This document shows, piece after piece, positions 17,330 through 39,496 of a DNA stretch of 58,954 bases; positions within the stretch are counted from its first letter, which is position 1; each line of letters opens with the position of its first letter. Source of the DNA: Bacteroidota bacterium (GTDB lineage Bacteria > Bacteroidota > Bacteroidia > UKL13-3); assembly GCA_947446605.1 (NCBI GenBank), contig CANFHJ010000004.1:1-58954 (forward strand). Reading direction: 5' to 3'. Made by a program: the position numbers and the translations under genes. The notes under the pieces are model-generated. The model saw nothing but the letters and a program-made list of their open reading frames with translations, did not search any database and was not told where the DNA came from.

Positions 17330-20062
17330 CTATTCTTCAATAAATAAATCTACGGTAAATTCAAATTGCCCCTCTTGGTAGGCTTTATAATTGGTATGCC
17401 AATAATTATTAAACACATACCAAAAAACAATATCGGTTTTCTGAGCAGCGGTTTTCCAAGCCTTTGCACCATTGGTTTTGTTTTCATCTATAATTCCTCC
17501 AACTTCAAGCAAAGCCAATCCTGGAGATTTTATAAGATATTTGCCATTAGCTCCCTCCAATAAAACTTGATTCGGTACACAAACAAACTCCTTGTTTGAA
17601 CCATCCAATAAACTGCCTGGATACTCCATCATTTTTTGTTCTGTTCCGTAACTTAGCTTTGCCGTGCCATCCCCAATTGGCATAGCCAAATGCAGCGATT
17701 CCTTGCCTTTCTCCACTGCCTTATCAAAACGATAAGTACAACTTATTTGTGCATTGGTTTTATCCAATAAATACACCAAGGTAATGGCAGGCATCGAAGG
17801 CAATTTACCTTTTACAATAACACATTTAAAAACCGCATTGTCCATTTCGGTTCGAACCGAATCCACTTGCATGAAATGCTTTTGCATGGGATTAATTCCC
17901 AAACTATAAATGGGCTCAAACAAAGCATAATCTGCTTTTTTATTGACCCTGTTTTCTCCATCTACCCATAAATATTTTATACCTCCATGCACACTATCTA
18001 TTTCAAAATCTACTTTGTGCAAATGCCCCGAATTGTCTGCAATTTCCTCGCTCAAGCTAATTCCCATTTCTAAAACAATCTTCTTAAAATAGAATTGTGC
18101 CGAATCTAAAAAGCTCTTTTTTATTTCCCATTGCTTTGTTGTAAATGCAATTTCTGGATCAGAAATGCTACACCAAGAACCCCAAGTATGCTCATGAAAC
18201 AACACAATATTTTTATGCAATAAATAAAAATCATTTGCATACTTAACTTTGGTTTTATACCTATTAGCCTCCGCCTCCATTTGAAGTGTTTTCTCTACCA
18301 AATAGCGCATTTTAATTTCTTCAACCGCGGTAGAATAAGCTCCATCCTCCCAGTAAGGAGCTATCTCTCCAGTATAAGATGGCAACTGATTTTTATAACG
18401 TTTTTCAAATTGGCCAAACAAATTATTAAGCGAGGTAATATGTATTTGAGGACTACTGTATTGTGCATTCCAATTTTCAATAAAAGCACATAGCGTTGTG
18501 TCAACAGGACCATTATCGCTTATTTTGGTATAGCGCAATTGCACCAAATCATAAGGATAATTTTGTGCCAATAATTCTTCACAATAATCAGAAATTCTTT
18601 GTTCCCAGTCTGCTTGCTTAGTGCTTTCTGGAATGCCATGAAAATAAGAATAACCCTTACCTGCTGTCCATACCAAAATTTGCTGCTTAGAGGCTGAATC
18701 AGGCTTCCAATAAAAAGCTTTATCGCCTTGCTCACGCAACAAGGATCCTACCCTATCACCCCTATCTGGCAAGCTTCCAATATAATTTGGACCAAATGAT
18801 AAATAAGGAATTTTGGCATTGGTATACGATTTAAATCCTGCATAAGACAAGCCCGGAATATCGGTGGTCATTACATTATGAATAACAAAACCATAAGTTT
18901 TTTCTAAATAATGCGCGTATTCCAAAGCCCAACTCAATTCTTCCTCTCTGCCTAAGCCTGTAAGGATATTTGCATAATTGGCAGATAAAACAATTTGACC
19001 AGATTTAACATGTCTTACAAATAATTCCTTTTCAGAAACACTGGCAATGCGTAAAAAATTCTCAACTGCCCACAAAGACTCAATATGCCAATAGGGTTTC
19101 TCTTGGGCATTTTTGTTTTGTTCAATCCATCGAATAGCACTGCTAATATTCCTGTTTTGAATTTGCTCAACTTCCGTTTGCAAATGAGAGTAACCAATAT
19201 CATTATGAGAATGATGTATAAGTTGAAACGAATAGGAATGAATAGGTTTTAGGTAAATTTTTTCTGTGATTTTTAGGGTATTATTAACCATACACAAAAC
19301 CTGCTGAGGCCCTACCAATGAGGTGTCATAGGCTGCAATACTTAATTTATTGTAACCCTCTAATAAACTAAAATGAAAAACATTTTTACCAAAAATAAAT
19401 TCAAAAGGAGTTATTCCTTTATAGGGGTTATCAATAAAAATATTTACCTGCCGCTTATTGCTTTTTCTCAAAACCAAATTGCTTGGCTGTATGCTAATCT
19501 TTAGTTCTTTGGCATACATAAATACCATTAACCAATCTCTGCTTTCTAAGTTTTTACCACTAAAGGTGAAAACCGCAGAGTCCTTTACAAACGAGCTTGG
19601 AACACTAATATAAAGCTTACCAAAAGCATCGTAATTCAAATCAAATTCTTGGTTTTTAAAATAAAAAGAAGTGCACAATAAGCCATCACCCTTAGCAATA
19701 AAATTTCCCTTTTGGTGCTTTTCTGTTACAAACCCAAAAAGATAATTTCCATTTAATTTTACATCAAAAATTCTTTGACCGCTGCTGGTACCCGTTGAAT
19801 GCCCAATCAATAATTCGTAACAAACTTTTTGTTTTTTTCCATTGTAAACAGGCGCCTCCCAAGAAATTTCAGATTGCCCGTTAGCCCTTGTTAAAAGTGC
19901 CCTTGGCGCAAATTGATGCATAGGAGAAAAATAATTTATTTCCTCTCCAAAAACTGTTGAAGCATAGCCATTAAGCGTGTCTTGGTCTTGGCCAATAACA
20001 CGCAAAGCAAACAAGAAAAAGAAAATAAAAAATCTGCAATTGAGGCAATTCAAATTTTTCAC
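17330..20062 (-). CDS. Secreted GH38-like (alpha-mannosidase-type) glycoside hydrolase
   Basis: Signal-peptide-like N-terminus; HHSHNDIGY metal motif, TTDIPG nucleophile region, WEDGAYS, HEHTWG, NNYWHTNY. Confidence 0.72.
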   Translation of the reverse strand: MKNLNCLNCRFFIFFFLFALRVIGQDQDTLNGYASTVFGEEINYFSPMHQFAPRALLTRANGQSEISWEAPVYNGKKQKVCYELLIGHSTGTSSGQRIFDVKLNGNYLFGFVTEKHQKGNFIAKGDGLLCTSFYFKNQEFDLNYDAFGKLYISVPSSFVKDSAVFTFSGKNLESRDWLMVFMYAKELKISIQPSNLVLRKSNKRQVNIFIDNPYKGITPFEFIFGKNVFHFSLLEGYNKLSIAAYDTSLVGPQQVLCMVNNTLKITEKIYLKPIHSYSFQLIHHSHNDIGYSHLQTEVEQIQNRNISSAIRWIEQNKNAQEKPYWHIESLWAVENFLRIASVSEKELFVRHVKSGQIVLSANYANILTGLGREEELSWALEYAHYLEKTYGFVIHNVMTTDIPGLSYAGFKSYTNAKIPYLSFGPNYIGSLPDRGDRVGSLLREQGDKAFYWKPDSASKQQILVWTAGKGYSYFHGIPESTKQADWEQRISDYCEELLAQNYPYDLVQLRYTKISDNGPVDTTLCAFIENWNAQYSSPQIHITSLNNLFGQFEKRYKNQLPSYTGEIAPYWEDGAYSTAVEEIKMRYLVEKTLQMEAEANRYKTKVKYANDFYLLHKNIVLFHEHTWGSWCSISDPEIAFTTKQWEIKKSFLDSAQFYFKKIVLEMGISLSEEIADNSGHLHKVDFEIDSVHGGIKYLWVDGENRVNKKADYALFEPIYSLGINPMQKHFMQVDSVRTEMDNAVFKCVIVKGKLPSMPAITLVYLLDKTNAQISCTYRFDKAVEKGKESLHLAMPIGDGTAKLSYGTEQKMMEYPGSLLDGSNKEFVCVPNQVLLEGANGKYLIKSPGLALLEVGGIIDENKTNGAKAWKTAAQKTDIVFWYVFNNYWHTNYKAYQEGQFEFTVDLFIEE

Positions 20063-20083
20063 GGAAAGAAATTTATGGATTAA

Positions 20084-21010
20084 TTAATCTGCATTTCCGC
20101 TGCTCTTCAACATCATTGCTTGAATTTGGCGCATGGTCTTTTCCATGCCATCTGGACTACCATCTAAAAATATAACATTACCCTTTCCATACTCTGCAAA
20201 ATTCTTTACAGCTTCTGTCCACATGCTAAACAAAATTACATTGGTATCTAAATTGGCTTGCTTCATTTCCTCCGCAGCATTAGACATCCCTTTAGCTACT
20301 GCTTGTCTAAACAAGGCAACGCCTTCTCCACGCAACAAGGCTGCTTGTTTCTCTGCTTCAGCAGAAATTTTTATTGCATTACCTTCTGCCTCGGCAGCCT
20401 TTGTTTTTGTAATTAATAAAGCCTGACCTTCATTTTCAGCGGCAGCTTTTAAATTATTTGAAGCCACAACTTTGCTCATGCTCTCTATAATGGCCTGGTC
20501 AAAAGTAATATCATTGATTTGCAAATCTTGTAAATGATAACCCCAAGTAGATAAAGTATGGTCAATTTGATCTTTCACAAAATCAACAATTTCTTTACGC
20601 GAAGCCAACACCTCTGCTTGTTTTTTTGAAGCCACAAAAGCACGAATACTGCCTTCAATGGTGCGAATCAAAGCTTGCATCAAATCCTTTTCGCTAAAAA
20701 ACTTAAACGCAACACGTTGAATGGTTTCGTCCTCTTGATCCATTACACTAAACAACAACATGGATTTAAAATATACATTAGCCTGATCAATAGTTACCGC
20801 CTGAAATTCTAATTCTACCGAACGATTTTGAATAGAAATCTTTTTATAAACCTGCTCAATAATTGGAATTTTTAAATTTAATCCAGGTTGCATAATGCGT
20901 TTGTATTTTCCAAAAACAGTAATTACGGTTACCGTTCCTTGTTGAACAGTTTGCAAGCCACTGAATAAAATCATGGCAACTGCAACAAATAAAATTAAAA
21001 TTACATACAT
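20084..21010 (-). CDS. SPFH/band 7 domain membrane protein
   Basis: N-terminal TM anchor, FGKYKRIMQPGLNLKIP, and AAENEG/AEAEG coiled coil. Confidence 0.9.
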   Translation of the reverse strand: MYVILILFVAVAMILFSGLQTVQQGTVTVITVFGKYKRIMQPGLNLKIPIIEQVYKKISIQNRSVELEFQAVTIDQANVYFKSMLLFSVMDQEDETIQRVAFKFFSEKDLMQALIRTIEGSIRAFVASKKQAEVLASRKEIVDFVKDQIDHTLSTWGYHLQDLQINDITFDQAIIESMSKVVASNNLKAAAENEGQALLITKTKAAEAEGNAIKISAEAEKQAALLRGEGVALFRQAVAKGMSNAAEEMKQANLDTNVILFSMWTEAVKNFAEYGKGNVIFLDGSPDGMEKTMRQIQAMMLKSSGNAD

Positions 21011-21166
21011 ATGAATAGGGGTTTAATAGGGTTTTATTAACTGATTAAAAACAAAACTAACACATTCTGAGCTAGGAACAAGCTATGTAGGTCACATTAA
21101 AAAAAAATGCCTAAAATCCTTTTTGGTTCGAACCAATTACTTAATATTGTGCTACAAGAAAAGCAT

Positions 21167-22480
21167 ATGATTTCAAGTATTGTATTTTTGATTCTCACAG
21201 GAGTGGCCTCCTACTTTTTTGCAAAAAACCTAAGTAAAATTAGACGTAATATTTTATTGGGCAAAGACATTGATCTTTCAGACAATAAACCTCTTCGCTT
21301 TAAAACCATGCTAGGCGTGGCCTTTGGGCAAAGTAAAATGAAAGCAAGGCCGGTTCCTTTTGTTTTGCATTTCATTGTGTATGCAGGATTTATCCTCATC
21401 AATATTGAGGTGCTTGAAATACTCATAGATGGAATTTTTGGCACCCACAGAGTCCTATCTGTTTTCGGACCAATTTACAATTTGGCAATTGGCTTTTTTG
21501 AAATTCTTGCATTTGCTGTTTTGGTTTCTTGCATCCTCTTTTTGTTTCGCAGATACATTGTTAAAATTGCCCGCTTTCAAAGTCCAGAATTAAAAGGCTT
21601 TGCCAGCAGAGATGCTGCCACTATTTTGTTTGTAGAAATTGTTTTAATGGGCGCTTTGCTTAAAATGAATGCAGCAGATCAAATCTTGCAATTACGCGGA
21701 GTAGAGCACTATATCAAAGCAGGCTCATTCCCAATTAGCTCTTGGCTTGTGGTGCCTTTTTATAATTGGCTTAACATGAGTGATGCTAGTCTTATTTTCT
21801 TAGAAAGAATTGCCTGGTGGTTCCATATTATTGGTATTTTCTTGTTCATGAATTACCTGCCTTTTAGCAAGCATTTCCATATTATTATGGCCTTTCCTAA
21901 TACATGGTATTCTAACCTAAAAGCAAAAGGCGAACTCAATAACATGGCTTCCGTTACGCAAGAGGTTAAGTTAATGCTCGATCCAAGCGCCCAAACTCCT
22001 GAAGGCTATCAGCCACCAACCAGCTTTGGTGTAAAAGATGTAACAGACCTTACCTGGAAAAATTTAATGGATGCCTACACCTGCACAGAGTGCGGCAGGT
22101 GCACCAGTGTTTGCCCGCAAAACCAAACAGGTAAAACATTGTCGCCACGCAAAATAATGATGGATACCCGCGACCGTTTAGAAGAAGTAGGTAAAAATAT
22201 TGATGCCAATAAAGGAACTTTTGTAGACGATAACAAAAACCTACATTCCTATATTTCTGAAGCAGAATTATGGGCATGTAATACTTGTAACGCCTGCGTT
22301 GAAGCTTGTCCGGTAAATATAAACCCAATGGAAATTATTGTTGAAATGCGCCGCTATAAAGTAATGGAACAAAGTGCTGCTCCTGCTGCTATTAACAATA
22401 TGTTTAGCAATATGGAAAACAACCAGGCGCCATGGCAATTCTCGCCAATGGACCGCGCCAATTGGACACAAGAGGATTAA
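21167..22480 (+). CDS. Membrane-bound Fe-S oxidoreductase subunit (FadF/HdrE-D-like N-terminal half)
   Basis: Five TM segments, SKHFHI, and two ferredoxin motifs CTECGRCTSVCP and CNTCNACVEACP; ATG 21167 preferred. Confidence 0.88.
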   Translation: MISSIVFLILTGVASYFFAKNLSKIRRNILLGKDIDLSDNKPLRFKTMLGVAFGQSKMKARPVPFVLHFIVYAGFILINIEVLEILIDGIFGTHRVLSVFGPIYNLAIGFFEILAFAVLVSCILFLFRRYIVKIARFQSPELKGFASRDAATILFVEIVLMGALLKMNAADQILQLRGVEHYIKAGSFPISSWLVVPFYNWLNMSDASLIFLERIAWWFHIIGIFLFMNYLPFSKHFHIIMAFPNTWYSNLKAKGELNNMASVTQEVKLMLDPSAQTPEGYQPPTSFGVKDVTDLTWKNLMDAYTCTECGRCTSVCPQNQTGKTLSPRKIMMDTRDRLEEVGKNIDANKGTFVDDNKNLHSYISEAELWACNTCNACVEACPVNINPMEIIVEMRRYKVMEQSAAPAAINNMFSNMENNQAPWQFSPMDRANWTQED

Positions 22481-22512
22481 GAATTTAAAAGAGTAAAGTA
22501 AATATTATTTGT

Positions 22513-23301
22513 ATGAGCGAATTTAAAGTGCGTACCATGGCCACATTGGCCGCTGCCGGCGAAGAAGCAGAAATACTTTTCTGGGTAGGTTGCGCAGGTA
22601 GTTTTGACGAACGTGCACAAAAAATAACGAAGGCTGTGGCAAAAATTTTGCATGCTGCAAACCTCCAATTTGCTATTCTTGGAACAGAAGAAGCCTGTAC
22701 CGGCGATCCCGCCAAACGCGCTGGAAACGAGTTTCTTTTTCAAATGATGGCCATGCAAAATATTGAAACCTTGAACGCATACGGCATTAAAAAAATTGTT
22801 ACCGCTTGTCCGCATTGCTTCAATACCCTCAAAAATGAGTACCCCGCTTTAGGAGGTAACTACGAGGTCTTGCACCATACCACGCTCATCAATCAATTAT
22901 TAAATGAGGGGAAAATAGCCATCAAAGGTGGTGCCTTTAAAGGTCAAAGAATTACCTACCACGATAGTTGCTATTTAGGTAGAGCAAATAATATTTATGA
23001 AGCGCCTCGAGAAATAATTGAAAAGTTAGATGCTGCTTTGGTTGAAATGAAACGCAGCAAAGCCAACGGTTTATGCTGTGGTGCAGGCGGTGCACAAATG
23101 TTTAAAGAAGCAGAAGAAGGCAGCAAAGAAGTAAATATTGAACGCGCAGACGATATCCTAGAATCCAATTCAAATGTGGTAGCTTCTGCCTGTCCTTTCT
23201 GTATGACCATGCTCAGAGATGGTGTTAAACACCATAACAAGGAAGCAGAAATAGACGTAAAAGACTTGGCAGAATTAGTTGCAAATGCAATGGATTTATA
23301 G
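22513..23301 (+). CDS. CCG-domain Fe-S-binding protein (FadF/HdrD-like C-terminal half)
   Basis: FWVGC, CTGD, ACPHC, YHDSCYLGR, CCGAGG and ACPFC motifs. Confidence 0.9.
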   Translation: MSEFKVRTMATLAAAGEEAEILFWVGCAGSFDERAQKITKAVAKILHAANLQFAILGTEEACTGDPAKRAGNEFLFQMMAMQNIETLNAYGIKKIVTACPHCFNTLKNEYPALGGNYEVLHHTTLINQLLNEGKIAIKGGAFKGQRITYHDSCYLGRANNIYEAPREIIEKLDAALVEMKRSKANGLCCGAGGAQMFKEAEEGSKEVNIERADDILESNSNVVASACPFCMTMLRDGVKHHNKEAEIDVKDLAELVANAMDL

Positions 23302-23313
23302 GCCAAAAACCTA

Positions 23314-26039: not shown

Positions 26040-26561
26040 TTATAATTCATCTATTATATAATCCTCATCAATTTCTAAATTAAGCGCATTCATGCCCGCC
26101 GAATCGCTTATAATATTTAGCTTGTCTATCTCCGAACACCAACCCGCATCACACAATAAATCTTCACTTAAATCAACATCATTCAAATGCGCTGCAATAT
26201 CTTCTGCGCTTATTTTTTGGTTCGAACCAAGCTCCTTTTCTGGCCTAGGCTGATATAAAAATAAACCAAAAACAAACAGCAAACTTGCCGCAATTCCCAC
26301 CCACATAAATACCGGTTTGCCATAAAGAGAAATGCTACTTGCCAAGCGCTTGCTTACGCGCTCCTCCAATTGCAAATTTAATTGCACGAAATAATTTTCT
26401 GGCACCACAAAACCACCTTGAACAGGAGGAAATAATGAAGCCTCTTCTTCTGGCATTAATTTATTTTCTAGCTCAGAAAAATAATTCTGGGGCACAGAAA
26501 ATCCTCCTTGAATAGGCAATTCCCTTAAATATCTTTCGCTATTGCTAATCTCTTGATCCAT
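26040..26561 (-). CDS. Putative anti-sigma factor (single TM)
   Basis: Duplicated GGFxVPxNYF motif, then WVGIAASLLFVFG TM helix; follows an ECF sigma gene. Confidence 0.72.
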   Translation of the reverse strand: MDQEISNSERYLRELPIQGGFSVPQNYFSELENKLMPEEEASLFPPVQGGFVVPENYFVQLNLQLEERVSKRLASSISLYGKPVFMWVGIAASLLFVFGLFLYQPRPEKELGSNQKISAEDIAAHLNDVDLSEDLLCDAGWCSEIDKLNIISDSAGMNALNLEIDEDYIIDEL

Positions 26562-27281: not shown

Positions 27282-30026
27282 ATGCGAAAAATACTGTTGG
27301 GTTTCTTGCTCGTGTCTTCTTTTCAAAATCTTCTAATTGCCCAATCAAACAATGATTGGCTCAGTGGTGTGCTGCAAAAAAACGACTCTATTTATTTCTT
27401 GTTCTCAGAAGATATTTATCAAATTAAACCTGCTGGAATTTCTGTTACTGGCTCCTTTAGAGGCTGGAGCCAAGATTTAAAAGACGCCAATTGGAACCTA
27501 AAAAATACAAGTGAGGGCAAATGGATTTTAGGAATTTACAACCCCAACTTCAGCAAAATAAATCCATCAACTGCTTTTAAATTTAGAACCAGTGAAGGCC
27601 AATGGCTCAATCCGCCCAAAACAGCTCCAAACCTAGACGGCGGAAATTTGGTTTTTATGAAAGGTTTTATACCCCTAACTGTTGAAGCAGGAATAGTGAA
27701 CAATGAGAAAATTCAAGTCGTAATTAAGGGCATTAACAACGCAAAAGGTTCTTTAAAAACCAATAAAGAAGAATTTATACTCACCGATGCCAAAGGCAAT
27801 AAAATAGGCCTTCAACATATTGAAACACAAACACAAATTAATTTGCCAGCGCAAATAGAAATAGGCCTCTACCCCGCCCAAGCAATAGATAAAAAAAGAG
27901 TTTACTACATAGAAATACCAAGTATCCAGAAAAAAGAATTGTGCAGCTTCGAACCCTGGTTCAAAAACTTAAAAAGTGACAAGCTATTGGGTGCAAACAT
28001 TGCCGAAGATGGCCTATCTACTAGCTTTCGCGTGTTTGCACCAAGAGCAACCAAATTGCGTCTTTACCTCTATGCAAATAAAGACCAACAAACACCCAAC
28101 CAAATTATTGAACTCACAGAAGATTCAATGGGTGTTTGGGAAACCACCATTCCTAAAAACCTCAATGGCATGTGGTATGATTTTACCGTGCATGGCGCAA
28201 CAGATCCAGGGAATTCTTTTTATGAAACCAATCCGGTTCATATCAGCGATCCCTATGCCAGAGTATGCGATGATAGCTTCGGAAAATGCAGGATATGCCA
28301 AAAAACAAAAGCCGCAAAGCCACTTAAAAACGGCCGACCAAAAATGGAAAATGTAATGGCGTATGAAGTGCATGTGCAAGACTTTACAGACCTCCTTCCG
28401 CTTGATTCGAACCTAAAAGGAACCATTCCTGCAATGGGAATAAGTGGTTTAAAAAATAGCCGTGGACAAGCAATAGGTTTTGATTACCTCACCCAATTAG
28501 GCATAAATACCGTTCACCTAATGCCGGTTCAAGAAATGTTACATTGGCCTAAAGATGAGTGGGACAGCGCTTTTAAAAATGATGCCTACATGATTGAGCA
28601 GGGTGTTGCCAAAGAAAATTATGATTGGGGCTATAGAACCTCACACAGCTTTGCCATTGAAACACGCTACCGCCAAAAGGGAACAGAACCGGGTGCAGAA
28701 CGTGAACAATTTAGAGACCTGGTACAAAAATTTCACGAAAAAAATATTGCAGTCATAGTAGATTTTGTATTCAACCATACCGCAGAAAACATGGATGGCC
28801 GAGCCTACCTTTTTCACTTCAATGCCTACGATAAACAATATTATTACCGAACCAAAAACCTTGAACACATTGGCGAATATGGCAATGAAACCAAAAGCGA
28901 AAATCGCTATATGACGCAACGTTGGATCATAGACCAATGCAAAGCGTTTATTGAGGAATTTGGCGTAGATGGTTTCAGAATTGATTTGGCAGGGCAAACC
29001 GACCAACAAACACTGTTGCAACTAAAAAAAGAATTGCCAGAGGATATTATCATATACGGCGAACCTTGGATAGACAGCAACGATCCTGCCTATAACCATA
29101 ACCCAGATTGGCATTGGTACAAAGAAGATGCCCCTATTTGCTATTTCAACGACGATACCAGAAACACCTATAAAGGACCAGTATTTGAATTAAATAAAAA
29201 AGAAACAGACCGGGGCTGGGCCGGCGGAAATGCTAGCCTGCGCAACGATGTTAAATTGGCGCTTACCTGTGGTTTCCCAACACAAAAAAATATCAATAGC
29301 GCAATCAACTATTTAGACATCCACGATAATTTTACCCTTGCTGATCAATTTGCCACAACAGGTTTCGATGGTCGTTATGGTGTAGATGAACTGAATTACA
29401 AAATTGCCGCAGTTTTACTTTTTACCACACCCGGACCCCTGGTTTTACATGGTGGTTCAGAAATGCTACGCAGCAAGGGAATGGCGCCTTTACAAGAAAT
29501 AGAAAAAGCCATTCCAAGCGGTAAATTATACTTTCATGGAAAACGCGATACCTATAATTTGCGCTTTGCCAACCAATTTATTTGGGAAAATATTGGTAAA
29601 ACATTCGACAAAAAACACAGTCCAAGCACCAATATTCCATACGAAAATGCAGATTATTTAAACATGGTAAACTATTGGAAAGGCCTCATAGAATTGCGCA
29701 AACGCTACCTGTTTCCTTTGCCTGCTTACCAAGTTGAAAACACGCAAGAATACCTATTGCCCAAAAATGCCATCCAGTTTTTTGAACCCAAAGACGAGCA
29801 CATTCTTGCTTACATCATTCAAGGAAAAGTAATGGTGGTTTTAAACACCGGAAAAAGAATGGAAGAACTGCAATTTGAAATGCCTAAAGGTAAATGGAGC
29901 TTGGTTGGTAATGCCAATGAAATAGCACTCGACACCAAATTTGCCCAATACCATGAAAGCATTATGGGAGGGGAAAGAAAAATACTAATTGAACCTTATT
30001 CAATTAGTATTTATATCAAAGATTAA
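27282..30026 (+). CDS. Exported GH13 pullulanase/glycogen-debranching-like enzyme with CBM48-like domains
   Basis: Signal peptide from ATG 27282; VTGSFRGW and FRVFAP CBM-like motifs; YDWGY, DFVFNH, and catalytic GFRIDLA, YGEPW, IHDN. Confidence 0.87.
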   Translation: MRKILLGFLLVSSFQNLLIAQSNNDWLSGVLQKNDSIYFLFSEDIYQIKPAGISVTGSFRGWSQDLKDANWNLKNTSEGKWILGIYNPNFSKINPSTAFKFRTSEGQWLNPPKTAPNLDGGNLVFMKGFIPLTVEAGIVNNEKIQVVIKGINNAKGSLKTNKEEFILTDAKGNKIGLQHIETQTQINLPAQIEIGLYPAQAIDKKRVYYIEIPSIQKKELCSFEPWFKNLKSDKLLGANIAEDGLSTSFRVFAPRATKLRLYLYANKDQQTPNQIIELTEDSMGVWETTIPKNLNGMWYDFTVHGATDPGNSFYETNPVHISDPYARVCDDSFGKCRICQKTKAAKPLKNGRPKMENVMAYEVHVQDFTDLLPLDSNLKGTIPAMGISGLKNSRGQAIGFDYLTQLGINTVHLMPVQEMLHWPKDEWDSAFKNDAYMIEQGVAKENYDWGYRTSHSFAIETRYRQKGTEPGAEREQFRDLVQKFHEKNIAVIVDFVFNHTAENMDGRAYLFHFNAYDKQYYYRTKNLEHIGEYGNETKSENRYMTQRWIIDQCKAFIEEFGVDGFRIDLAGQTDQQTLLQLKKELPEDIIIYGEPWIDSNDPAYNHNPDWHWYKEDAPICYFNDDTRNTYKGPVFELNKKETDRGWAGGNASLRNDVKLALTCGFPTQKNINSAINYLDIHDNFTLADQFATTGFDGRYGVDELNYKIAAVLLFTTPGPLVLHGGSEMLRSKGMAPLQEIEKAIPSGKLYFHGKRDTYNLRFANQFIWENIGKTFDKKHSPSTNIPYENADYLNMVNYWKGLIELRKRYLFPLPAYQVENTQEYLLPKNAIQFFEPKDEHILAYIIQGKVMVVLNTGKRMEELQFEMPKGKWSLVGNANEIALDTKFAQYHESIMGGERKILIEPYSISIYIKD

Positions 30027-30030: not shown

Positions 30031-31302
30031 TTAACTATACAATGGAAAACCTTCCATTAATCGGTTAACATCTTTCTTTACTTCTGCTAAAACAGCTGCG
30101 TTTTCTGCGTTCATAAGCACCTTGTCAATTAAGCTAACAATGTTACCCATTTGCGCTTCTTTAAGGTTTCTGCTGGTAATTGCAGCAGTACCAATTCTAA
30201 TTCCTGAAGTTACAAAAGGTGATTTATCATCAAATGGAACCATGTTTTTGTTAATGGTAATATCTGCTTGTATCAAAGCATTTTCAGCTGCTTTACCGCT
30301 AATGTTTTTATTGCGCAAGTCAATTAACATTAAATGATTATCTGTACCACCGCTAATAATTTTATAACCCAAATCAACAAAGGCATTTGCCATAGCATTG
30401 GCATTGGTTCTAACCTGTTTTATATACGTGTGGTAATCATCACTCAAAGCCTCTCCAAAAGCAACGGCTTTGGCTGCAATTACATGCTCCAATGGACCAC
30501 CTTGTGTACCAGGAAAAACAGCGCCATCCAAAATAGCACTCATCATTTTAGGCTCGCCTTTTGGCGTGGTTAATCCCCAAGGGTTTTCAAAATCTTTACC
30601 CATCATTATTATTCCACCCCTTGGCCCACGCAAGGTTTTATGGGTAGTAGAAGTTACTATATGGCAATGAACCATTGGGTCGTTCAATAGTTTTCCCGCA
30701 ATTAATCCCGCAGGATGCGAAATATCTGCCAACAACAAGGCTCCTACTGAATCTGCTATTGCGCGTAACCTTGCGTAATCCCAATCACGGCTATATGCCG
30801 ATGCACCACATATAATCAATTTAGGTAATTCGCGTTTGGCAATTACTTCTACTTTATCCCAATCAATTAATCCAGAATCTGGCTCTACACCATAAAAACT
30901 TGGCTTATATAATTTGCCCGAAAAATTTACTGGCGAACCATGCGTTAAATGTCCACCGTGTGACAAATCAAATCCCAATATTTTATCTCCAGGGTTCAAT
31001 ATGCCAAGCATAACAGCTGCGTTTGCTTGCGCTCCACTGTGTGGTTGCACGTTTGCCCATGCCGCTCCAAATAATTTTTTTAAACGATCTATAGCAATGT
31101 TTTCTACCACATCTACAACCTCACAACCACCATAATAACGCTTCCCGGGCAAGCCTTCTGCATACTTATTGGTTAATACAGAACCCATAGCCTCCATTAC
31201 CTGTTTGCTAACAAAATTTTCAGAAGCAATTAGCTCTAATCCGTGCTCTTGGCGGTGCAATTCTTTTTCAATTAAATTGAAAATTTCTTGGTCTCTGCTC
31301 AT
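30031..31302 (-). CDS. glyA: Serine hydroxymethyltransferase
   Basis: [32 protein letters not shown]-lysine motif [12 protein letters not shown]. Confidence 0.98.
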
Positions 31303-31418
31303 ATTTTATGTGGGTTGAATGGCCTGCAAAATAGTATTTTGGAACTAACTAATAAAATAGTTTATTTTCGTGTCTTCTATTTTTGGGTTCGAACCAAAAC
31401 ATGAATGAAAAAATAAAC

Positions 31419-32411
31419 ATGAAAGCAATTATTCCTGTAGCCGGAATTGGCACGCGCTTAAGACCTCATACGCACACACAACCTAAAGCATTAATTCCAA
31501 TTGCTGGTAAACCCATTTTGGCGCATATTACCGAAAGTTTAATAGATGCGGGTATCAATGATTTTGTTTTTATTATTGGCTACCTAGGCGACAAAATAGA
31601 GCAATACATTCTCCAACACTATCCCAATATCAACGCGCAATTTGTTATTCAAACAACCGGCAAGGGTGTTGGCCACGCTATTTGGTTGGCAAAAGATTGT
31701 ATTCTCCCTAATGAAGAAGTGTTAATCATTTTTGGCGATACCATTATTGATGCAAACCTTAACGAAATATGTAATACAGAAGGTAATTGGTTAGGCGTAA
31801 AAAAAGTAGAAGACCCGCGTCTTTTTGGTGTTGCAGAAATGGACAAAGACGGGAAAATTTTACGTGTTATAGAAAAGCCCAACATCCCTAAAAGCAATAT
31901 GGCATTAGTGGGTGTATACAAAATAAAAGACAGCAAAGAGCTCCTTGAGGCTTTAGATATTAACCTTGCCAAAAAACTAAAAACACACGGTGAATTTACG
32001 CTCACAGATGCTATCATGCAAATGATAGATAACGGCATTGAGTTTCAATCTTTCGGAGTTTCTAATTGGTTCGATTGTGGTAAAAAAGAAATTTTATTGG
32101 AAACTAATTCACTTCTTCTTAAGCGCTTAAACTACGATACTTCTAAATACATTTTCGAAAATACAATTGTTATACCGCCCGTATTTATAGGCGAAGGTTG
32201 CAAAATTAGCAACTCTATTATTGGACCAAATGTATCAATAGGCGAAAATGCAATTCTCAATTACGCAACCATTAAAGACTCCATTATAGGACCATATGCG
32301 CAAATTGAATTTGCCATCCTTCACCGCTCTCTTATTGGAAACGATGCACTCTTAAAAGGCATGAGCCAAAGCCTAAATATTGGCGATAGCACTGAAATAA
32401 ATTTTGGATAA
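31419..32411 (+). CDS. Sugar-phosphate nucleotidyltransferase (glucose-1-phosphate thymidylyltransferase-like, with C-terminal hexapeptide repeats)
   Basis: MKAIIPVAGIGTRLRPHT...PKAL, EKP, WFDCG and a left-handed beta-helix tail. Confidence 0.9.
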   Translation: MKAIIPVAGIGTRLRPHTHTQPKALIPIAGKPILAHITESLIDAGINDFVFIIGYLGDKIEQYILQHYPNINAQFVIQTTGKGVGHAIWLAKDCILPNEEVLIIFGDTIIDANLNEICNTEGNWLGVKKVEDPRLFGVAEMDKDGKILRVIEKPNIPKSNMALVGVYKIKDSKELLEALDINLAKKLKTHGEFTLTDAIMQMIDNGIEFQSFGVSNWFDCGKKEILLETNSLLLKRLNYDTSKYIFENTIVIPPVFIGEGCKISNSIIGPNVSIGENAILNYATIKDSIIGPYAQIEFAILHRSLIGNDALLKGMSQSLNIGDSTEINFG

Positions 32412-32427
32412 ATATTACACCTTCCCA

Positions 32428-32469: not shown

Positions 32470-32482
32470 GCGTATTAAAAAC

Positions 32483-34910: not shown

Positions 34911-34920
34911 GGTATGTTGG

Positions 34921-34928
34921 CAAAAGTA
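34921..34928 (-). promoter_or_regulatory. -7 promoter element (TACTTTTG)
   Basis: TAnnTTTG match 10 nt upstream of ATG 34910. Confidence 0.6.
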
Positions 34929-35079
34929 CAACTCAAACACTGTTCCAATTTGCTAGATTCCCCACACATAGCTCGCTTTGTATACAATTGTGTCCAAAAT
35001 TTTACTGCTTAAACTTTTAGGTTTTTATTAAGGCAATAACTAAACTTGCTTTCGTTTATAGGATTATAATTTTCTTTTT

Positions 35080-37188
35080 ATGTTAAGCATACGCAATACC
35101 ATCGCACTTCTTGTTTTAATGAGCATCAGCCCTGTTTTGAGCTGGGGCCAATTACAAGAAAAACCTGTTTGGCAACTCAAAACAAATAAAACAGAAGTAA
35201 AAACGGGCGACGAAATTGAACTCATTTTTACCAGCAAAATTCAAAAAGACTGGTACATGTATTCCAATGATTTCAGCGGAGATGTTGGACCAATTGTTGC
35301 TTTGTTTGAATTTGAAAAACACCCAAGCTACCAATTGGTTGGCAAACTAAAGCCCGTTGGAAACCACAAGCATTTCGACGAAGTTTTTGGGGGTGAGGTA
35401 TCCACCTTCGTTGGAAAAGCAGAGTTTCACCAAAAGGTTAAAATTCTTCAGGCAAACCCCAAAATAAAAGTTTCTGTGGAGTTTCAAGAATGCTCACAAA
35501 TTACAGGAATGTGTGTACTTTTTGACGATGTGCTTGAGTTTAAAAATATTAAAGTTTCTGGCGCCTCAATAGCGCAAAACCCAGAAACAACAAGCGAACC
35601 AGCCGCTGCAACAAGTCCTGCCGCCACATCGGTAGACACAACTAAAACCACCATAAACACTACAACAACTGCATCAAATAACAATGCCTGCGACTACAAA
35701 AATATGCAGGTACCAAACGATTCTTACATCAAAGAAAATGGCCAAAAAGGCGATCTAGATGGCAGCGGAGAATCGCTATTGGGATTTATGATTTATGCCT
35801 TCCTTTTTGGTTTAGGCGCTATCATGACTCCTTGTGTGTTTCCAATGATTCCAATGACCGTTACCTTCTTTACCAAACACCAAGACCACGGTAGATTCAA
35901 GGCATTTGTTTTCGGTCTGTTTATTATCCTTATTTATACCATTGTTGGAACCCTAGTGGCCATCTTTATGGGGCCAGATTTTGCAAATTGGCTCAGTACG
36001 CACTGGCTACCAAATATTCTGTTCTTCCTAATTTTTATGGTGTTTGCGGCTTCTTTCTTGGGAATGTTTGAAATAACATTGCCTCATAAATTCGTAAACT
36101 CCATGGACTCCAAATCAAGCATGTCATCCTATGGTGGTATTTTCTTTATGGCATTTACCATGGTATTGGTATCCTTCTCTTGCACAGGACCTCTTGTAGG
36201 TAATATTTTAATCCAAGCATTTGGCGGAACTTACCTTCGCCCTATTGCAGGAATGTTTGCCTTCTCTCTCGCATTTGCCATTCCATTTACCTTATTTGCC
36301 ATCTTCCCGCAATGGCTGAGTACCCTTCCTAAATCTGGTGGTTGGCTAAATTCGGTTAAAGTGGTGCTTGGTTTTATTGAGTTGGCTCTGGCGTTCAAAT
36401 TCCTTTCAACTGCAGATACCGTATACCAATGGGGTATCCTAAACCGTGATATTTACATTGCAATTTGGATCGTTATTGCCTTGTTACTTGGTCTTTACTT
36501 AATGGGTAAGTTTTTGACCGCCCACGATAGTCCAATTCAAAGCGTAAGCGTCCCTCGCCTATTTATGGCCATTGCCTCTTTCTCTTTTGCCATTTATCTT
36601 TTCCCTGGCCTATTTGGCGCACCACTGAGCGCAATATCAGGTTACCTGCCTCCGCAACACACTCTAGCTTTTGATTTATACACTTCAAAAGACACCAAAA
36701 ACAATATCAACGAAAACATTAAACACGAAAAAATATTTCACCTTCCACATAACCTTAAAGGCTTTTTTGATTATTGCCAAGCACTTGAGTATAGCAAAAA
36801 AGTAAACAAACCCGTATTCATTGATTTTACTGGACATGGCTGCGTTAACTGTCGTAAAATGGAAGCCAATGTGTGGAGCAATCCAGAGGTATTAAAAATG
36901 CTAAACGACGATTATATTGTTGTTGCATTGTACGCAGACAATAAAGAAACTTTACCAGAAAATGAATGGTATGTTTCTCCATATGATAACAAAGAAAAAA
37001 GAGAAATTGGCAAACAAAACCTCGATCTTCAAATTCGCAAATTCAATGCAAACGCACAGCCACTTTATGTACTTATAGATGGTTCAGAAAATATGCTCGC
37101 ATACCCAAGAGCTTTTAATGAAAGCGTTCCAGAGTTTGTAGAGTTCCTCAAAAAAGGAAAAGAAACCTATAAACGTATTCACCCTTAA
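35080..37188 (+). CDS. dsbD: Thiol:disulfide interchange protein DsbD
   Basis: N-terminal Ig-like domain with a Cys pair, TPCVFPMIP, FSCTGP, LPKSGGWLN, and thioredoxin DFTGHGCVNC. Confidence 0.92.
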   Translation: MLSIRNTIALLVLMSISPVLSWGQLQEKPVWQLKTNKTEVKTGDEIELIFTSKIQKDWYMYSNDFSGDVGPIVALFEFEKHPSYQLVGKLKPVGNHKHFDEVFGGEVSTFVGKAEFHQKVKILQANPKIKVSVEFQECSQITGMCVLFDDVLEFKNIKVSGASIAQNPETTSEPAAATSPAATSVDTTKTTINTTTTASNNNACDYKNMQVPNDSYIKENGQKGDLDGSGESLLGFMIYAFLFGLGAIMTPCVFPMIPMTVTFFTKHQDHGRFKAFVFGLFIILIYTIVGTLVAIFMGPDFANWLSTHWLPNILFFLIFMVFAASFLGMFEITLPHKFVNSMDSKSSMSSYGGIFFMAFTMVLVSFSCTGPLVGNILIQAFGGTYLRPIAGMFAFSLAFAIPFTLFAIFPQWLSTLPKSGGWLNSVKVVLGFIELALAFKFLSTADTVYQWGILNRDIYIAIWIVIALLLGLYLMGKFLTAHDSPIQSVSVPRLFMAIASFSFAIYLFPGLFGAPLSAISGYLPPQHTLAFDLYTSKDTKNNINENIKHEKIFHLPHNLKGFFDYCQALEYSKKVNKPVFIDFTGHGCVNCRKMEANVWSNPEVLKMLNDDYIVVALYADNKETLPENEWYVSPYDNKEKREIGKQNLDLQIRKFNANAQPLYVLIDGSENMLAYPRAFNESVPEFVEFLKKGKETYKRIHP

Positions 37189-37200
37189 GCACCAAACAAT

Positions 37201-37773
37201 ATGAATGCTATAAAACAACATTTTAGTGAGGCACATGAGGTGCTTTCCAATTTTTTAGCCAACGATAAAAATTTTGAAACTATTGAAGCTGCCGGAAAAT
37301 TAATGGTGGAATCCATTAAAAATGGTGGCAAAATTCTTAGTTGTGGAAACGGTGGCAGCATGTGCGATGCCATGCATTTTGCCGAAGAACTTACCGGAAA
37401 ATACAGAAACGATAGACCTGCTATTGCAGCAATTTCTATGAGCGATGTAAGTCATATGGCTTGCGTTGGAAACGATTATGGTTATGATTTTGTATTTAGC
37501 CGTTACCTAGAGGCTGTAGGCCGCGAAGGCGATGTGCTTTTAGGAATTTCAACCAGCGGTAACAGCAAAAATGTAATCAATGCCATGGAAGTGGCCCGCA
37601 AAAAAGGTATCAAAATTATTGGTCTCACCGGTAAAGATGGCGGCAAAATGGCCCCTCTTTGTGATGTTGAAATTCGTGCTCCTCACAGCAATTACGCAGA
37701 TAGAGCTCAGGAGATCCATATCAAATGTATTCATTCGCTCATCGATTATATCGAAAGAAGTTTATTTGCCTAA
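37201..37773 (+). CDS. gmhA: D-sedoheptulose 7-phosphate isomerase
   Basis: [31 protein letters not shown] and QEIH. Confidence 0.95.
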
Positions 37774-37798
37774 TACCATTCATTAACACAAAAATCCT

Positions 37799-39496
37799 TT
37801 GCCAATCCGATCCATTTTTCGAAGAAAATCCATTGCCAATATCGTTGCCGACCACGATTTGGCAGAAAAAAACGGGCAGAATTTAACAAGAACACTTGGC
37901 TTTCGCGACCTTACAGCAATGGGCATCGCGGCAATTATTGGCGCAGGAATTTTTAGTACTATTGGAAACGCAAGTTTCAATGGCGGACCCGCTGTAGTTA
38001 CCCTCTTTATTTTTACAGCAATTGCTTGTGGATTTTCTGCTATGTGCTATGCAGAATTTGCATCAGTAATACCCATCAGTGGTAGTGCATATACCTACGC
38101 ATACGCAGCTTTTGGTGAAGTGGTAGCCTGGATTATTGGTTGGGCGCTCATCGTAGAATATGCCATCGGAAACATTGTTGTTGCCATCAGTTGGAGCGAT
38201 TACTTTACCGGATTAATGGCTGGCCTTGGCTGGCATATCCCAGAATATTTTAGCATGGACTACCTCTCTGCTAAACGCGGATTTGAAGAAGCCACACAAT
38301 TATTAAGCACACACCAATCAATCGGTTCGAACCTACAAGAAGCCTTTTTAGCCTGGTCTAATGCACCTGAGCTCTTTGGCCAAAAAATCATCCTCGACTT
38401 TCCTGCCCTGGCCATCGTAATTGCCATTACAGCGCTCATTTATAGGGGTGTTAAAGAAACCAAAAACGCCTCAAATATTATGGTAGCTATCAAACTTATT
38501 GTGGTAGCAATGGTTATTGTAGTAGGCGCATTTTATGTTAATCCGGCCAACTGGACACCATTTGCGCCAAACGGAATGAGTGGTGTAATGAAAGGTGTGT
38601 CCTCCGTATTCTTTGCCTATATTGGTTTTGACGCCCTGGCAACTACTGCAGAGGAATGCAAAAATCCCCGAAAAGATCTTCCCAAAAGCATGGTGGCCTC
38701 CCTAATTATTTGTACTATTTTATATATCCTAATAGCCTTAGTGCTTACGGGAATGGTAAACTACACAGAATTGGGTGTGGGTGATCCCCTTGCATTTGTT
38801 TTCGAAAAAGTACAACTACCCTGGATGCAAGGCATTGTAGCGGTTAGCGCAGTTATTGCAATGGCAAGTGTATTGCTTGTTTTTCAAAATGGTCAACCTC
38901 GCATTTGGATGAGCATGAGCAGAGATGGCCTTTTGCCAAAAAGATTCAGCGAAATTCACCCAAAATACAAAACCCCTTGGTTCGCCACAATTATTACTGG
39001 AATATTAGTGGCTATCCCTGCCCTTTTTATGAACCTCAAAGAAGTTACCGACCTTTCAAGCATTGGAACTCTTTTTGCTTTTGTTTTGGTGAATGCAGGA
39101 GTAATAAAAATGGAAAGCCATAAAAGTGAATACCATACCGGATTTAAAGTTCCATATATAAACGGCAAATACTATGTTCCTGCAATTTTCATATTGGCCT
39201 TAACAACAGTGTTTTTGCTGAATCAAAATGCGTTTGTAGAGTTCTTTTGTTTTAAAAATTTTTGGCACCAAATGCCTTTGCTCGCATTCCTAATATTATC
39301 TTTCTTTATGGCTATATTTTCTTATTTGAGAAACTACTCTTTAATTCCTGTTGTTGGGCTATTAAGCAATTTTTACTTAATGACAGAGCTAGGACTGTCA
39401 AATTGGATTGGCTTTAGCATATGGCTTGTATTTGGCCTAATTATCTATTTTTCATTTGGTGTTAAAAACAGCGCCTTACTTAAAACAAGAAATTAA
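37799..39496 (+). CDS. APC family (cationic amino acid transporter-like) permease
   Basis: GIAAIIGAGIF, CYAEFAS, GSAYTY, FFAYIGFDA, QPRI...MSRDGLLP; exact start uncertain (TTG). Confidence 0.92.
   Translation: MPIRSIFRRKSIANIVADHDLAEKNGQNLTRTLGFRDLTAMGIAAIIGAGIFSTIGNASFNGGPAVVTLFIFTAIACGFSAMCYAEFASVIPISGSAYTYAYAAFGEVVAWIIGWALIVEYAIGNIVVAISWSDYFTGLMAGLGWHIPEYFSMDYLSAKRGFEEATQLLSTHQSIGSNLQEAFLAWSNAPELFGQKIILDFPALAIVIAITALIYRGVKETKNASNIMVAIKLIVVAMVIVVGAFYVNPANWTPFAPNGMSGVMKGVSSVFFAYIGFDALATTAEECKNPRKDLPKSMVASLIICTILYILIALVLTGMVNYTELGVGDPLAFVFEKVQLPWMQGIVAVSAVIAMASVLLVFQNGQPRIWMSMSRDGLLPKRFSEIHPKYKTPWFATIITGILVAIPALFMNLKEVTDLSSIGTLFAFVLVNAGVIKMESHKSEYHTGFKVPYINGKYYVPAIFILALTTVFLLNQNAFVEFFCFKNFWHQMPLLAFLILSFFMAIFSYLRNYSLIPVVGLLSNFYLMTELGLSNWIGFSIWLVFGLIIYFSFGVKNSALLKTRN

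Follow-up and report, generated by a model that had tools for sequence, protein, structure and literature searches.

To our knowledge, hyperabundant short words are found in only a few lineages, as HIP1 in cyanobacteria and as the uptake sequences DUS and USS in two proteobacterial families. DUS and USS are short, lineage-restricted words of hundreds to thousands of copies, present in both orientations and in all reading frames with inflated tripeptides, denser between genes and there forming inverted pairs, accompanied by enriched one-mismatch variants and differing as dialects among relatives. ComP is a pilin receptor for such words, and ComN/PpdA is named, in the literature excerpts drawn on here, as a candidate pilin receptor. 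HIP1 (GCGATCGC) and the alternate cyanobacterial HIPs are GC-rich palindromes, 15- to 300-fold over-represented in and between genes and conserved above neutral expectation; the function of HIP1 is still debated, the disputed roles being methylation-linked repair, nucleoid structure and uptake.

The word described here, GGTTCGAACC, was noticed in a 58,954-nt stretch of a Bacteroidota genome (assembly GCA_947446605.1, contig CANFHJ010000004.1, hereafter the window). The genome itself (G000) comprises 2.48 Mb in 203 contigs and is 84.5% complete; other numbered genomes are those with which it was compared. GGTTCGAACC is a derived palindromic dialect, of local range, of a DNA word (core GGTTC[A/G]AACC) that is hyperabundant throughout the genus, and no description of it was found in print, in keeping with an earlier note that had called the element possibly undescribed. 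The word shares with DUS and USS all the features listed above, and differs from them in occurring in Bacteroidota without a detected type IV pilus ATPase, at 3-30 times lower density, in being known from genomes alone and, in G000, in being a perfect palindrome. It resembles the HIPs in composition, over-representation, placement and conservation, and differs in its length (10-15 bases, against 8 for HIP1), in the pattern of its one-base deviations, in the mostly non-palindromic form in relatives and in that no cognate methyltransferase was found. Like the ParB/Noc-type sites (parS, NBS), the word in G000 takes the form of 14-bp palindromes centred on CG at scattered places along the chromosome, although in copy numbers 10-100 times higher; like Chi and KOPS-type polar words, which are read by DNA-processing machines, it is a short over-represented word.

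Copies in the window

The five exact copies listed in the earlier note (at 17849, 21125, 26219, 31386 and 38324) were all recovered, and its estimate of about 0.02 expected copies agrees with the mean of 0.02 over 100 dinucleotide shuffles, none of which (0/100) reached five. The longer perfect palindromes, the encoded peptides and the start codons (ATG at 21167 and at 31419) that it had reported were likewise borne out. Its one-mismatch copies at 27946, 28404 and 41142 were found again, although its list had missed one at 30406. Altogether the window holds 9 matches to GGTTCGAACC at one mismatch or fewer, against 0.61 expected. The features are as follows, with a strand given where one applies.

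17846..17861, unstranded: exact copy (core 17849-17858) within the 16-bp perfect palindrome TTCGGTTCGAACCGAA
17330..20062, minus strand: ORF of 910 aa with a weak Glyco_hydro_38N match (Pfam), holding the 17849 copy as V-R-T
21123..21136, unstranded: exact copy (core 21125-21134) in the 14-bp palindrome TTGGTTCGAACCAA
26217..26230, unstranded: exact copy (core 26219-26228) in a second TTGGTTCGAACCAA
26040..26561, minus strand: ORF of 173 aa adjoining an ECF sigma gene, holding the 26219 copy as G-S-N
31386..31395, unstranded: exact copy in the divergent intergenic region between glyA and an NTP-transferase gene
38324..38333, unstranded: exact copy in the amino-acid permease ORF 37799-39496 (plus strand), read as G-S-N
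27946..27955, unstranded: one-mismatch copy GCTTCGAACC
28404..28413, unstranded: one-mismatch copy GATTCGAACC
30406..30415, unstranded: one-mismatch copy GGTTCTAACC, within glyA
41142..41151, unstranded: one-mismatch copy GTTTCGAACC
46906..46915, unstranded: family member GGGTCGATCC, of the class GGxTCGAyCC, which is enriched genome-wide
47193..47202, unstranded: family member GGCTCGAGCC, with the typical flanks TT..GA

The 21125 copy lies upstream of the ATG at 21167, or within the ORF if the start is at 21107; it is retained in G022 and reads GGTTCAAACC in G017. The 26219 copy is retained in G016 and also in G022, despite flanks there of just 74% identity. Immediately after a TATTTTTG box stands the 31386 copy, the orthologous position of which carries GGTTCGAACC in G016 and G003 and GGTTCAAACC in G009, G017, G020, G015, G001 and G012, while the 38324 copy is retained in G016, though the left flank has diverged, and is missing from G004, G009 and G007.

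An assembly or adapter artefact, which the earlier note had named as a possible refutation, is excluded by enrichment of the word in all 24 of the other genus assemblies and by its retention at orthologous positions. Contigs from four other sequencing studies span the sites at 21125, 26219 and 31386, and among the 40 differences listed for them (854 more exist besides) none falls within a copy.

Abundance and effect on proteins

With 272 sites in 2,479,440 bases, GGTTCGAACC is the commonest 10-mer of G000, its both-strand count of 544 standing against 1.5 expected under an order-3 Markov model (~358-fold). Inside ORFs, which cover 93% of the genome, lie 208 of the 272 (76%), with the remaining 64 outside or partly outside; 20 synonymous-codon shuffles gave a mean of 4.6 ORF copies (range 2-9), an excess of ~45-fold. 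The Markov and codon-shuffle excesses support the proposal of a HIP-like, highly iterated DNA-level element. All three frames are used by the 208 ORF copies (96 as GSN, 79 as VRT and 33 as FE-P), and this, with the count far above the shuffles, upholds the view that protein constraint does not explain them. The corresponding tripeptides are inflated, GSN at 317 vs 221 (1.4-fold), VRT at 159 vs 84 (1.9-fold) and FEP at 132 vs 85 (1.6-fold), an excess approximately equal to the number of word-encoded copies. The same effect of uptake sequences on proteins is reported in the sections of Findlay and Redfield 2009 (PMC2817400) drawn on here.

The bias towards oriC at which the earlier note had hinted was not borne out, as the 203 contigs show an even scatter of copies (dispersion chi-square 169, 202 df). 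Their mean spacing of ~9 kb is a little more even than random (CV 0.84 vs 1.03 +/- 0.08), and of 343 sites just one pair lies close together. Two half-sites, statistically independent of each other and each with T at position 3 in ~76% of cases, make up the 14-bp palindromic consensus of G000, and conservation ends ~4 bases either side of the core in both G000 and G017. One-mismatch variants are also enriched, 3- to 111-fold, their summed copies by position being 34 (1/10), 43 (2/9), 162 (3/8), 36 (4/7) and 84 (5/6). The commonest single variant is the CpG-to-TpG product, with 71 copies and no depletion.

Dialects across the genus

The CG form GGTTCGAACC is present in all 25 genus genomes at 3 to 311 copies. 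Outside the genus, 94 genomes from 16 sister genera have 0-6 copies each, and none of 400 genomes from the phylum has more than 19. The non-palindromic GGTTCAAACC is likewise present in 25/25, at 46-1323 copies against 5-40 for controls, and is at background in 15 of the 16 sister genera, the exception being G103 with 82 copies. CG and CA copies together range ~13-fold among the genus genomes, from 107 to 1415 (1 per 3 to 1 per 30 kb), and the CG share rises from 3% to 83%, tracks relatedness and peaks in the clade of G000. The palindromic form is hyperabundant in G000, G016 and G022, and GGTTCAAACC dominates in the rest of the genus; the TA-centred palindrome GGTTTAAACC is at background in all five CA-rich genomes. 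Extended by its flanks, the word reads TTGGTTCAAACCGAA in most of the genus and T-Y-GGTTCGAACC-R-A in G000's clade; the flanks themselves are TT..GA in G017, T-Y..R-A in G000 and, for the most part, TT..AA in G004.

In a sample of G017, 62 of 124 copies read TTGGTTCAAACCGA and 64 lie outside ORFs, although ORFs make up 90% of the sample. Eight of the ten adjacent pairs at most 60 bp apart are inverted, and these include three near-identical modules of ~45 bp (contig C49 at 91374, 92863 and 96211). Chi and KOPS are skewed by replichore, whereas the 65 forward and 59 reverse copies of the asymmetric form are interleaved on two contigs (34:32 and 25:24), with no strand skew seen along these contigs of the sample.

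Conservation and origin of copies

The conservation test that the earlier note had proposed showed 34 of 39 G000 sites (87%) kept in G016, at 91% identity, vs 51% of all 10-mers, with the excess holding even in windows below 84% identity. In the comparison of G000 with G004 (74% identity), each retains part of the other's sites, 6 of 21 for G000 and 6 of 9 for G004 (29-67%), vs a background of 9%. Conservation above neutral, which Xu et al. 2018 describe for HIPs, is thus also a property of this word. All seven G000-G016 differences at sites are substitutions, without indels relative to orthologues, and the G004 comparison indicates that point substitutions in partly matching sequence give rise to new copies. 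It is at the level of DNA that the word is kept: codon usage is overridden, protein sequence is altered, and copies at orthologous positions far outlast their surroundings.

Possible readers of the word

The explanation favoured here, if tentatively, is that the word serves self-recognition in the manner of DUS and USS and is maintained by molecular drive, possibly by way of the DNA uptake without pili that is known from Bacteroidota. A genus-specific, sequence-specific DNA-handling machinery would read the word and favour the alleles bearing it, such that word-bearing fragments would be preferentially taken up and recombined, as for DUS in the Neisseriaceae and USS in the Pasteurellaceae, and the word would build up until protein constraint balanced the drive. 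A change in receptor specificity would shift the dialect, here from A to G at core position 6, and the route would be that of Riemerella instead of the type IV pilus, natural transformation without pilus homologues being documented for that genus in the portion of PMC8459023 drawn on here. This explanation is favoured by the enrichment, the tripeptide inflation, the genus range, the dialects, the occurrence in both orientations, the intergenic density, the inverted pairs, the conservation, the variants and the competence genes, of which ComEC and DprA are present in 5/5 genomes each, together with a ComEA-like double-HHH protein. As ComEC, DprA and ComEA are near-universal, they have no discriminating power. 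Rather more doubtful is the fuller proposition that a system of DNA self-recognition (uptake) sequences would here be seen for the first time outside Proteobacteria, read by pilus-independent Bacteroidota uptake machinery and, within one genus, midway through a change of dialect from GGTTCAAACC to GGTTCGAACC.

Because the known DUS/USS receptors are pilus proteins, the result for the type IV pilus / T2SS ATPase counts against uptake: the search with PF00437, the pilins themselves lying outside it, gave no convincing match in the 25 genus genomes and 2 of 119 over cut-off in the family. The pilus machinery with a pilin receptor that characterizes DUS and USS was thus not seen at the level of this ATPase in these 25 genomes. 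Also counting against uptake are the lower density of the word, the perfect palindrome with independent half-sites, which suits a symmetric dimer better than the known uptake receptors, and the G000-G016 alignments, in which nearly identical 500-bp windows, perhaps the product of recent exchange, are no richer in the word (5 sites in 73 windows at >=98% identity) than diverged ones (15 in 173 windows at <88%). The genus is, moreover, uncultured and represented by metagenome-assembled genomes alone, so that uptake and competence stand as a proposal.

The main rival to uptake is a set of binding sites under selection, an array for a sequence-specific chromosomal protein, e.g. a nucleoid-structuring one, in which the dialect shift would reflect a co-evolving recognition surface. 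This is considered unlikely, although the palindromic consensus of independent half-sites, the slightly regular spacing and the positional conservation at 91% and 74% identity are all consistent with it, and direct selection fits the conservation as well as uptake does. A nucleoid-structuring role has been proposed for HIP1, at least in the parts of Xu et al. 2018 (PMC5861425) drawn on here, and provides a precedent. Against it stand the ~13-fold range in copy number among congeners, the placement of most copies in ORFs at a cost to protein sequence, and the asymmetric word and flank in most of the genus. A dedicated ParB-family paralogue, such as a Noc-like protein, was also not detected: 22 of the 23 genus genomes with a ParB_N match have one, G005 has a weak second match and two genomes have none. 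A single ParB per genome is also the rule in sister genera without the word, and canonical parS-like sites were found apart from it. Of the 53 ORFs starting at most 200 bp from an intergenic copy, the 21 whose proteins were scanned included no DNA-binding gene. Of the earlier suggestion of a dimeric protein or restriction site, binding by some sequence-specific protein may still apply. The lack of a second ParB and of positional bias tells against the remainder, and palindromy, on which it rested, is not a property of the whole element: in the greater part of the genus the word is GGTTCAAACC, asymmetric in core and flank alike, and the palindrome centred on TA stays at background.

Improbable, in comparison with the uptake reading, is an intracellular drive without uptake or DNA methylation, in which a sequence-specific nuclease, nickase or mismatch-repair bias turns near-matches into the word. 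The origin of copies by substitution from partly matching sequence and the enriched one-mismatch relatives would be expected of such a process, as would the lack of greater density in high-identity G016 tracts. However, no candidate enzyme was found (Vsr in 0/5 genomes), the abundance of the undepleted CpG-to-TpG product argues against T:G correction at the centre, and the enrichment of hundreds-fold exceeds known repair biases, which yield approximately two-fold.

A HIP tied to a methyltransferase, as conceived by Elhai 2015, is very improbable; here an orphan methyltransferase on TCGA or TTCGAA, together with methyl-directed repair, would ratchet sequence towards the palindrome. It would account for a GC-rich palindrome built around a known Type II site in an AT-rich genome, for the fall of 272 of 629 TTCGAA sites of G000 within the word and, through 5-methylcytosine, for the abundant CpG decay product. 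However, the link to methylation suggested in the earlier note did not hold: no PF00145 match (C5) was found in G000, G016 or G022, and G000 at 84.5% completeness has no match to PF01555 (N4/N6) or PF02086 (Dam-type), with only the HsdM of a Type I system. Across the genus PF00145, PF01555, PF02086 and PF02384 are sporadic and no family tracks the word, with none of the four over cut-off in G018, G012, G019 and G022, which carry 75-203 palindrome copies. DndC was also not found. In the portions of Elhai drawn on here, a methyltransferase occurs wherever a HIP is abundant and one-base deviations are biased to the outermost positions, as in HIP1, whereas the deviations here concentrate at positions 3/8 and 5/6 and the word is mostly non-palindromic in the genus. 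The least probable explanation is that the word is part of some intergenic repeat, mobile or structural (REP/MITE-like or a hairpin terminator), that has spilled into genes. It is suggested by the inverted pairs and modules of G017 and disfavoured by flanks unconserved into any longer imperfect-palindrome consensus of the REP/BIME kind, by the predominance of ORF copies without indels and by the single close pair in G000.

Significance

The word provides an independent example of hyperabundance, from uncultured freshwater (lake) Bacteroidota, and as none of the four methyltransferase families searched accompanies it, hyperabundance appears separable from methylation, while the pilus ATPase result indicates a reader other than that of known uptake-sequence systems. 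The 25 genomes form a graded series between two dialects at ~100 to 1400 copies, a natural experiment for phylogenetic co-variation, and if the uptake reading is true the gradient in CG share could point to the receptor. The same series would let drive and selection be tested against each other in time series of lake metagenomes. In practical terms, binning and the assignment of long-resident plasmids or prophages gain in the word a strong marker of the genus.

Copies in the window and across the source genome

The 10-mer GGTTCGAACC, reported in an earlier note as a highly iterated palindrome, was present in the window as five exact copies at the positions first listed, and its rarity by chance was upheld, with 0.02 copies per window expected under a dinucleotide-preserving shuffle and five or more copies reached in none of 100 shuffles. 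Nine matches were found when one mismatch was allowed, against 0.61 expected; the three one-mismatch copies previously listed were all recovered, but that list was incomplete, lacking a fourth. The longer palindromes around three of the copies, the V-R-T and G-S-N peptides read through copies and the two ATGs proposed as nearby starts were likewise confirmed, and two further members of a wider family, GGxTCGAyCC, were present.

Copies of the word and associated features in the window
17849: exact copy, within a 16-bp palindrome (17846-17861)
21125: exact copy, within a 14-bp palindrome beginning at 21123
21167: ATG
26219: exact copy, within a 14-bp palindrome beginning at 26217
27946, 28404 and 41142: one-mismatch copies, previously listed
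30406: one-mismatch copy, added here
31386: exact copy
31419: ATG
38324: exact copy
46906 and 47193: GGxTCGAyCC family members

Parts of the window were present in public runs labelled as lake, freshwater and river metagenomes (seven studies). Contigs from other sequencing studies spanned three of the four copies in the compared stretch, a comparison that listed 40 of 894 differences and does not itself prove exact identity at the copies; among the records listed, none extended to 38324.

Across the source genome (G000; 2,479,440 bases, 203 contigs, 36.5% GC, 84.5% complete), in which the window is contig C4, the word occupied 272 sites and was the commonest 10-mer. The proposed over-representation held against both kinds of background. 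The both-strand count was 544 compared with 1.2-2.5 expected under Markov orders 0-3, while orders of 5 and above came near the observed count because they were trained on the word itself. By a simple longest-ORF rule, under which 5' ends are probably over-called, 93% of the genome fell in 2134 ORFs, and 208 copies lay in ORFs, 57 between ORFs and seven across an ORF end; synonymous-codon shuffling within each ORF left 2-9 copies (mean 4.6, 20 shuffles) in place of the 208. All three reading frames were used (96 G-S-N, 79 V-R-T and 33 F-E-(P)), despite the rarity of the codons TCG (8%) and CGA (6%). The tripeptides GSN, VRT and FEP occurred 317, 159 and 132 times against composition-based expectations of 221, 84 and 85, an excess approximately equal to the number of word-encoded copies, indicating that the proteins have been shaped by the DNA word rather than the reverse. 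Copies were evenly dispersed over contigs (chi-square 169 on 202 degrees of freedom), giving no support to the hinted bias towards the putative origin, and their gaps had a coefficient of variation of 0.84 (1.03 +/- 0.08 for random placement) and a median of 4460 (3613 +/- 393 for random placement).

The extended consensus was T-Y-GGTTCGAACC-R-A, with T in 89% of copies at position -2 and T (46%) or C (39%) at -1, and there was no conservation beyond approximately four bases from the core, so the word is not a piece of a longer repeat. All ten combinations of the GGxTCGAyCC class were enriched, 6- to 358-fold (473 sites in total), with counts that fit two independent half-sites in which T is preferred at approximately 76%. 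The commonest single variant was the CpG transition product GGTTTGAACC/GGTTCAAACC, with 71 copies. Half-site words were also enriched outside full copies, namely TTGGTTCG (767 compared with 89 expected), GGTTCGGC (238) and GCCGATCCAA (35), and may be copies in decay or in formation, or may belong to a second word related to the first.

Distribution and dialects within the genus

The palindrome was enriched in all 24 other genomes of the genus (3 to 311 copies), at background (0-6 copies) in 94 genomes representing the family's 16 other genera, and never above 19 copies in 400 genomes spanning 180 genera of the phylum. G016 and G022, the closest relatives, share 89-95% DNA identity with the source genome and had an equal palindrome density of approximately 110 per Mb; the remaining members are approximately 70-80% identical. 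At orthologous positions, many relatives carried GGTTCAAACC instead of the palindrome. This non-palindromic CA form was hyperabundant throughout the genus (46 to 1323 sites in each of the 25 genomes, compared with 5-40 for reversed-word controls), and its count was usually far above that of the palindromic CG form.

Sites of the two forms in selected genomes of the genus (genome, CG form, CA form)
G017, 92, 1323
G010, 34, 840
G014, 30, 785
G013, 3, 104
G000, 272, 71
G016, 311, 64

The CG share increased with relatedness to the source genome: it was 3-6% in the most distant members, 20-47% in those of intermediate distance and approximately 80% in the source genome's own clade. The palindrome first noticed is thus a dialect derived from a word found throughout the genus, with G in place of A at core position 6. 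The TA-centred palindrome GGTTTAAACC was at background in five of five CA-rich genomes, indicating that the word in such genomes is truly asymmetric and not a relaxed palindrome. In sister genera the CA form was at background, except for G103, the single genome of genus g29 (82 sites, control 12), and more weakly G048 of genus g19 (53, control 22); the word may have originated in a sister lineage that G103 represents. A glyA-based search gave metagenome-assembled genomes as its best matches (89% identity), with no word-rich locus among the 80 listed. A search of viral contigs with TTGGTTCGAACCAA returned at least 120 stretches, and since the 80 loci listed were all lone sites on different contigs, no enriched phage was seen.

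The asymmetric form was characterised in a 400-kb sample of G017, the genome with the most CA copies. Both-strand counts of 2.0 for the CA form and 0.3 for the CG form were expected there, whereas 124 and 15 copies were present. The extended consensus of the CA form was also asymmetric, with TTGGTTCAAACCGA in 62 of the 124 copies, and the two orientations (65 forward, 59 reverse) were interleaved and unrelated to GC skew. Although ORFs made up 90% of the sample, 64 of the 124 copies lay outside them, and eight of ten adjacent pairs no more than 60 bp apart were inverted and hairpin-capable. On contig C49, three near-identical modules of approximately 45 bp, each consisting of GGTTCAAACC, 17 bases and GGTTTGAACC, formed such hairpin-forming pairs in neighbouring intergenic regions (91374-91410, 92863-92899 and 96211-96247), with a similar pair at 108250. 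Short tandem arrays (AAAACC/TAAAACC-like and TCTCGTT-like) flanked copies in long intergenic regions of the same contig, at 117150-117400 and approximately 59600.

Conservation and turnover of sites

Copies were kept at orthologous positions above background. Over 279 kb aligned between the source genome and G016 (90.8% identity), 34 sites were common, five were specific to the former and two to the latter, with all differences being substitutions; 87% of source-genome sites were identical in G016, whereas the figure was 51% for 10-mers in general, 49% for those with a central CG and 50% for other palindromes; the flanks of the sites were 89.6% identical. Sites were retained also in the 500-bp windows with the greatest divergence, and copy density showed no trend with identity class. 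G016 DNA unaligned to the source genome was not depleted (5 copies in 29 kb, compared with 39 in 296 kb), although these numbers are too small to carry weight and the source assembly is incomplete. Against 400 kb of the more distant G004 (195 kb aligned, 74% identity), where background 10-mer identity was 9%, the sites common to both were 6 of 21 in the source genome and 6 of 9 in G004, and three more source-genome sites read GGTTYRAACC in G004. The remaining source-genome sites lay opposite unrelated sequence and are thus lineage-specific gains. A DNA-level, sequence-specific process thus maintains and multiplies the word in one genus, and the specificity of that process has drifted within the genus.

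Identity between the source genome and G016 was strongly mosaic (below 80% in 35 and at least 99% in 38 of 541 windows of 500 bp), a pattern suggestive of recombination between their lineages or of highly uneven constraint.

Candidate mechanisms

Searches of the full-text literature for the 10-mer, for its 8-mer core with 'palindrome' and for the CA variant found, among the papers listed (25 of 77 in one case), no treatment as a bacterial repeat, in keeping with the earlier suggestion that the element is possibly undescribed; a search combining 'DNA uptake sequence' and 'Bacteroidetes' likewise found no such element.

The word is restricted to one lineage, with dialects; it lies in both orientations without skew, is enriched between genes with inverted pairs there, occupies all reading frames with inflated tripeptides, has enriched near-matches and even spacing, and persists at orthologous sites. 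As these properties, taken together, are the hallmark of the DNA uptake sequences of Neisseriaceae and Pasteurellaceae, an uptake sequence read by a putative competence system is tentatively ranked first. Tripeptide doubling and a preference for tolerant positions are typical of uptake sequences (Findlay and Redfield 2009, PMC2817400), and HIP1 of cyanobacteria has itself been proposed as an uptake signal (2026 GBE paper). All five genomes tested encode ComEC, DprA and a ComEA-like double-HHH protein, although genes of this kind are widely distributed. Arguing against uptake, type IV pilus and type II secretion ATPases had no convincing match in the genus, the density of the word is 3-30 times lower than that of known uptake sequences, the source-genome dialect is perfectly symmetric, and the word is not enriched in near-identical tracts common to the source genome and G016. 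Riemerella undergoes natural transformation although it lacks homologues of pilus proteins; the proteins it uses are of unknown type and occur widely in Bacteroidetes (PMC8459023).

That the copies are selected binding sites of a chromosomal protein is a weaker candidate and the main rival; selection and nucleoid structure have been argued for HIP1 (Xu et al. 2018, PMC5861425). The suggested analogy to ParB- or Noc-type sites was not supported, as ParB is single-copy in the genus and sister genera alike and the parS-like sites are separate from the word; on contig C34, parB is followed by three copies in the next 1.5 kb, a number within chance expectation. A transcription-factor regulon was also rejected. 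The distance from intergenic copies to starts or stops varied, and of the 53 ORFs with a start no more than 200 bp from an intergenic copy, the 21 whose proteins were scanned were unrelated housekeeping genes with no DNA-binding regulator among them.

An intracellular conversion bias is unlikely. The proposed link to repair was not borne out for Vsr, which was found in none of five genomes and whose T:G product was not depleted. GAAC/GTTC is the known site of the phosphorothioate (Dnd) system, and DndC was also found in none of five genomes. Mimicry of the tRNA T-arm (TruB-type), suggested by a likeness of the word to GGTTCGAATCC, is disfavoured by the missing complementary stem and by copies running both ways relative to genes (34 sense, 26 antisense in G017).

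A methyltransferase-linked model, as in HIPs tied to orphan methyltransferases and methyl-directed repair (Elhai 2015), is very improbable. Four methyltransferase families were sporadic in the genus (over the cut-off in 7, 7, 7 and 19 of 25 genomes), and four genomes with 75-203 palindrome copies (G018, G012, G019 and G022) had none over the cut-off. Among these four families, no C5, PF01555 or Dam-type enzyme was found in the source genome, where the sole DNA methyltransferase detected was the HsdM of a Type I operon. An origin from REP- or MITE-like elements is the least probable of all.

Other features of the assembly

Beside the word, the following features of the source genome were observed.

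Window 7216-16068, forward strand: very long ORF (2950 aa), just upstream of the studied region
Window 52637-52652: parS-like site GTTTTCACGTGAAACA
Window 53549-53564: parS-like site CGTTCCACGTGAAATA
C197:937: third parS-like site, CGTTCCACGTGAAACA
C34:14930-16651: parAB
C39:3981-9995: Type I operon of HsdM, ORF6N (KilA-N-like), HsdS and HsdR, with ORF6N between hsdM and hsdS

Contig C39 (17 kb, 33% GC) held zero copies of the word. CACGTG was 2.1-fold above order-3 expectation (both-strand 434 compared with 205), with sites far too many for parS. The three parS-like sites differ by 2-3 mismatches from the canonical parS consensus, and the two in the window fit an origin-proximal region near its end.
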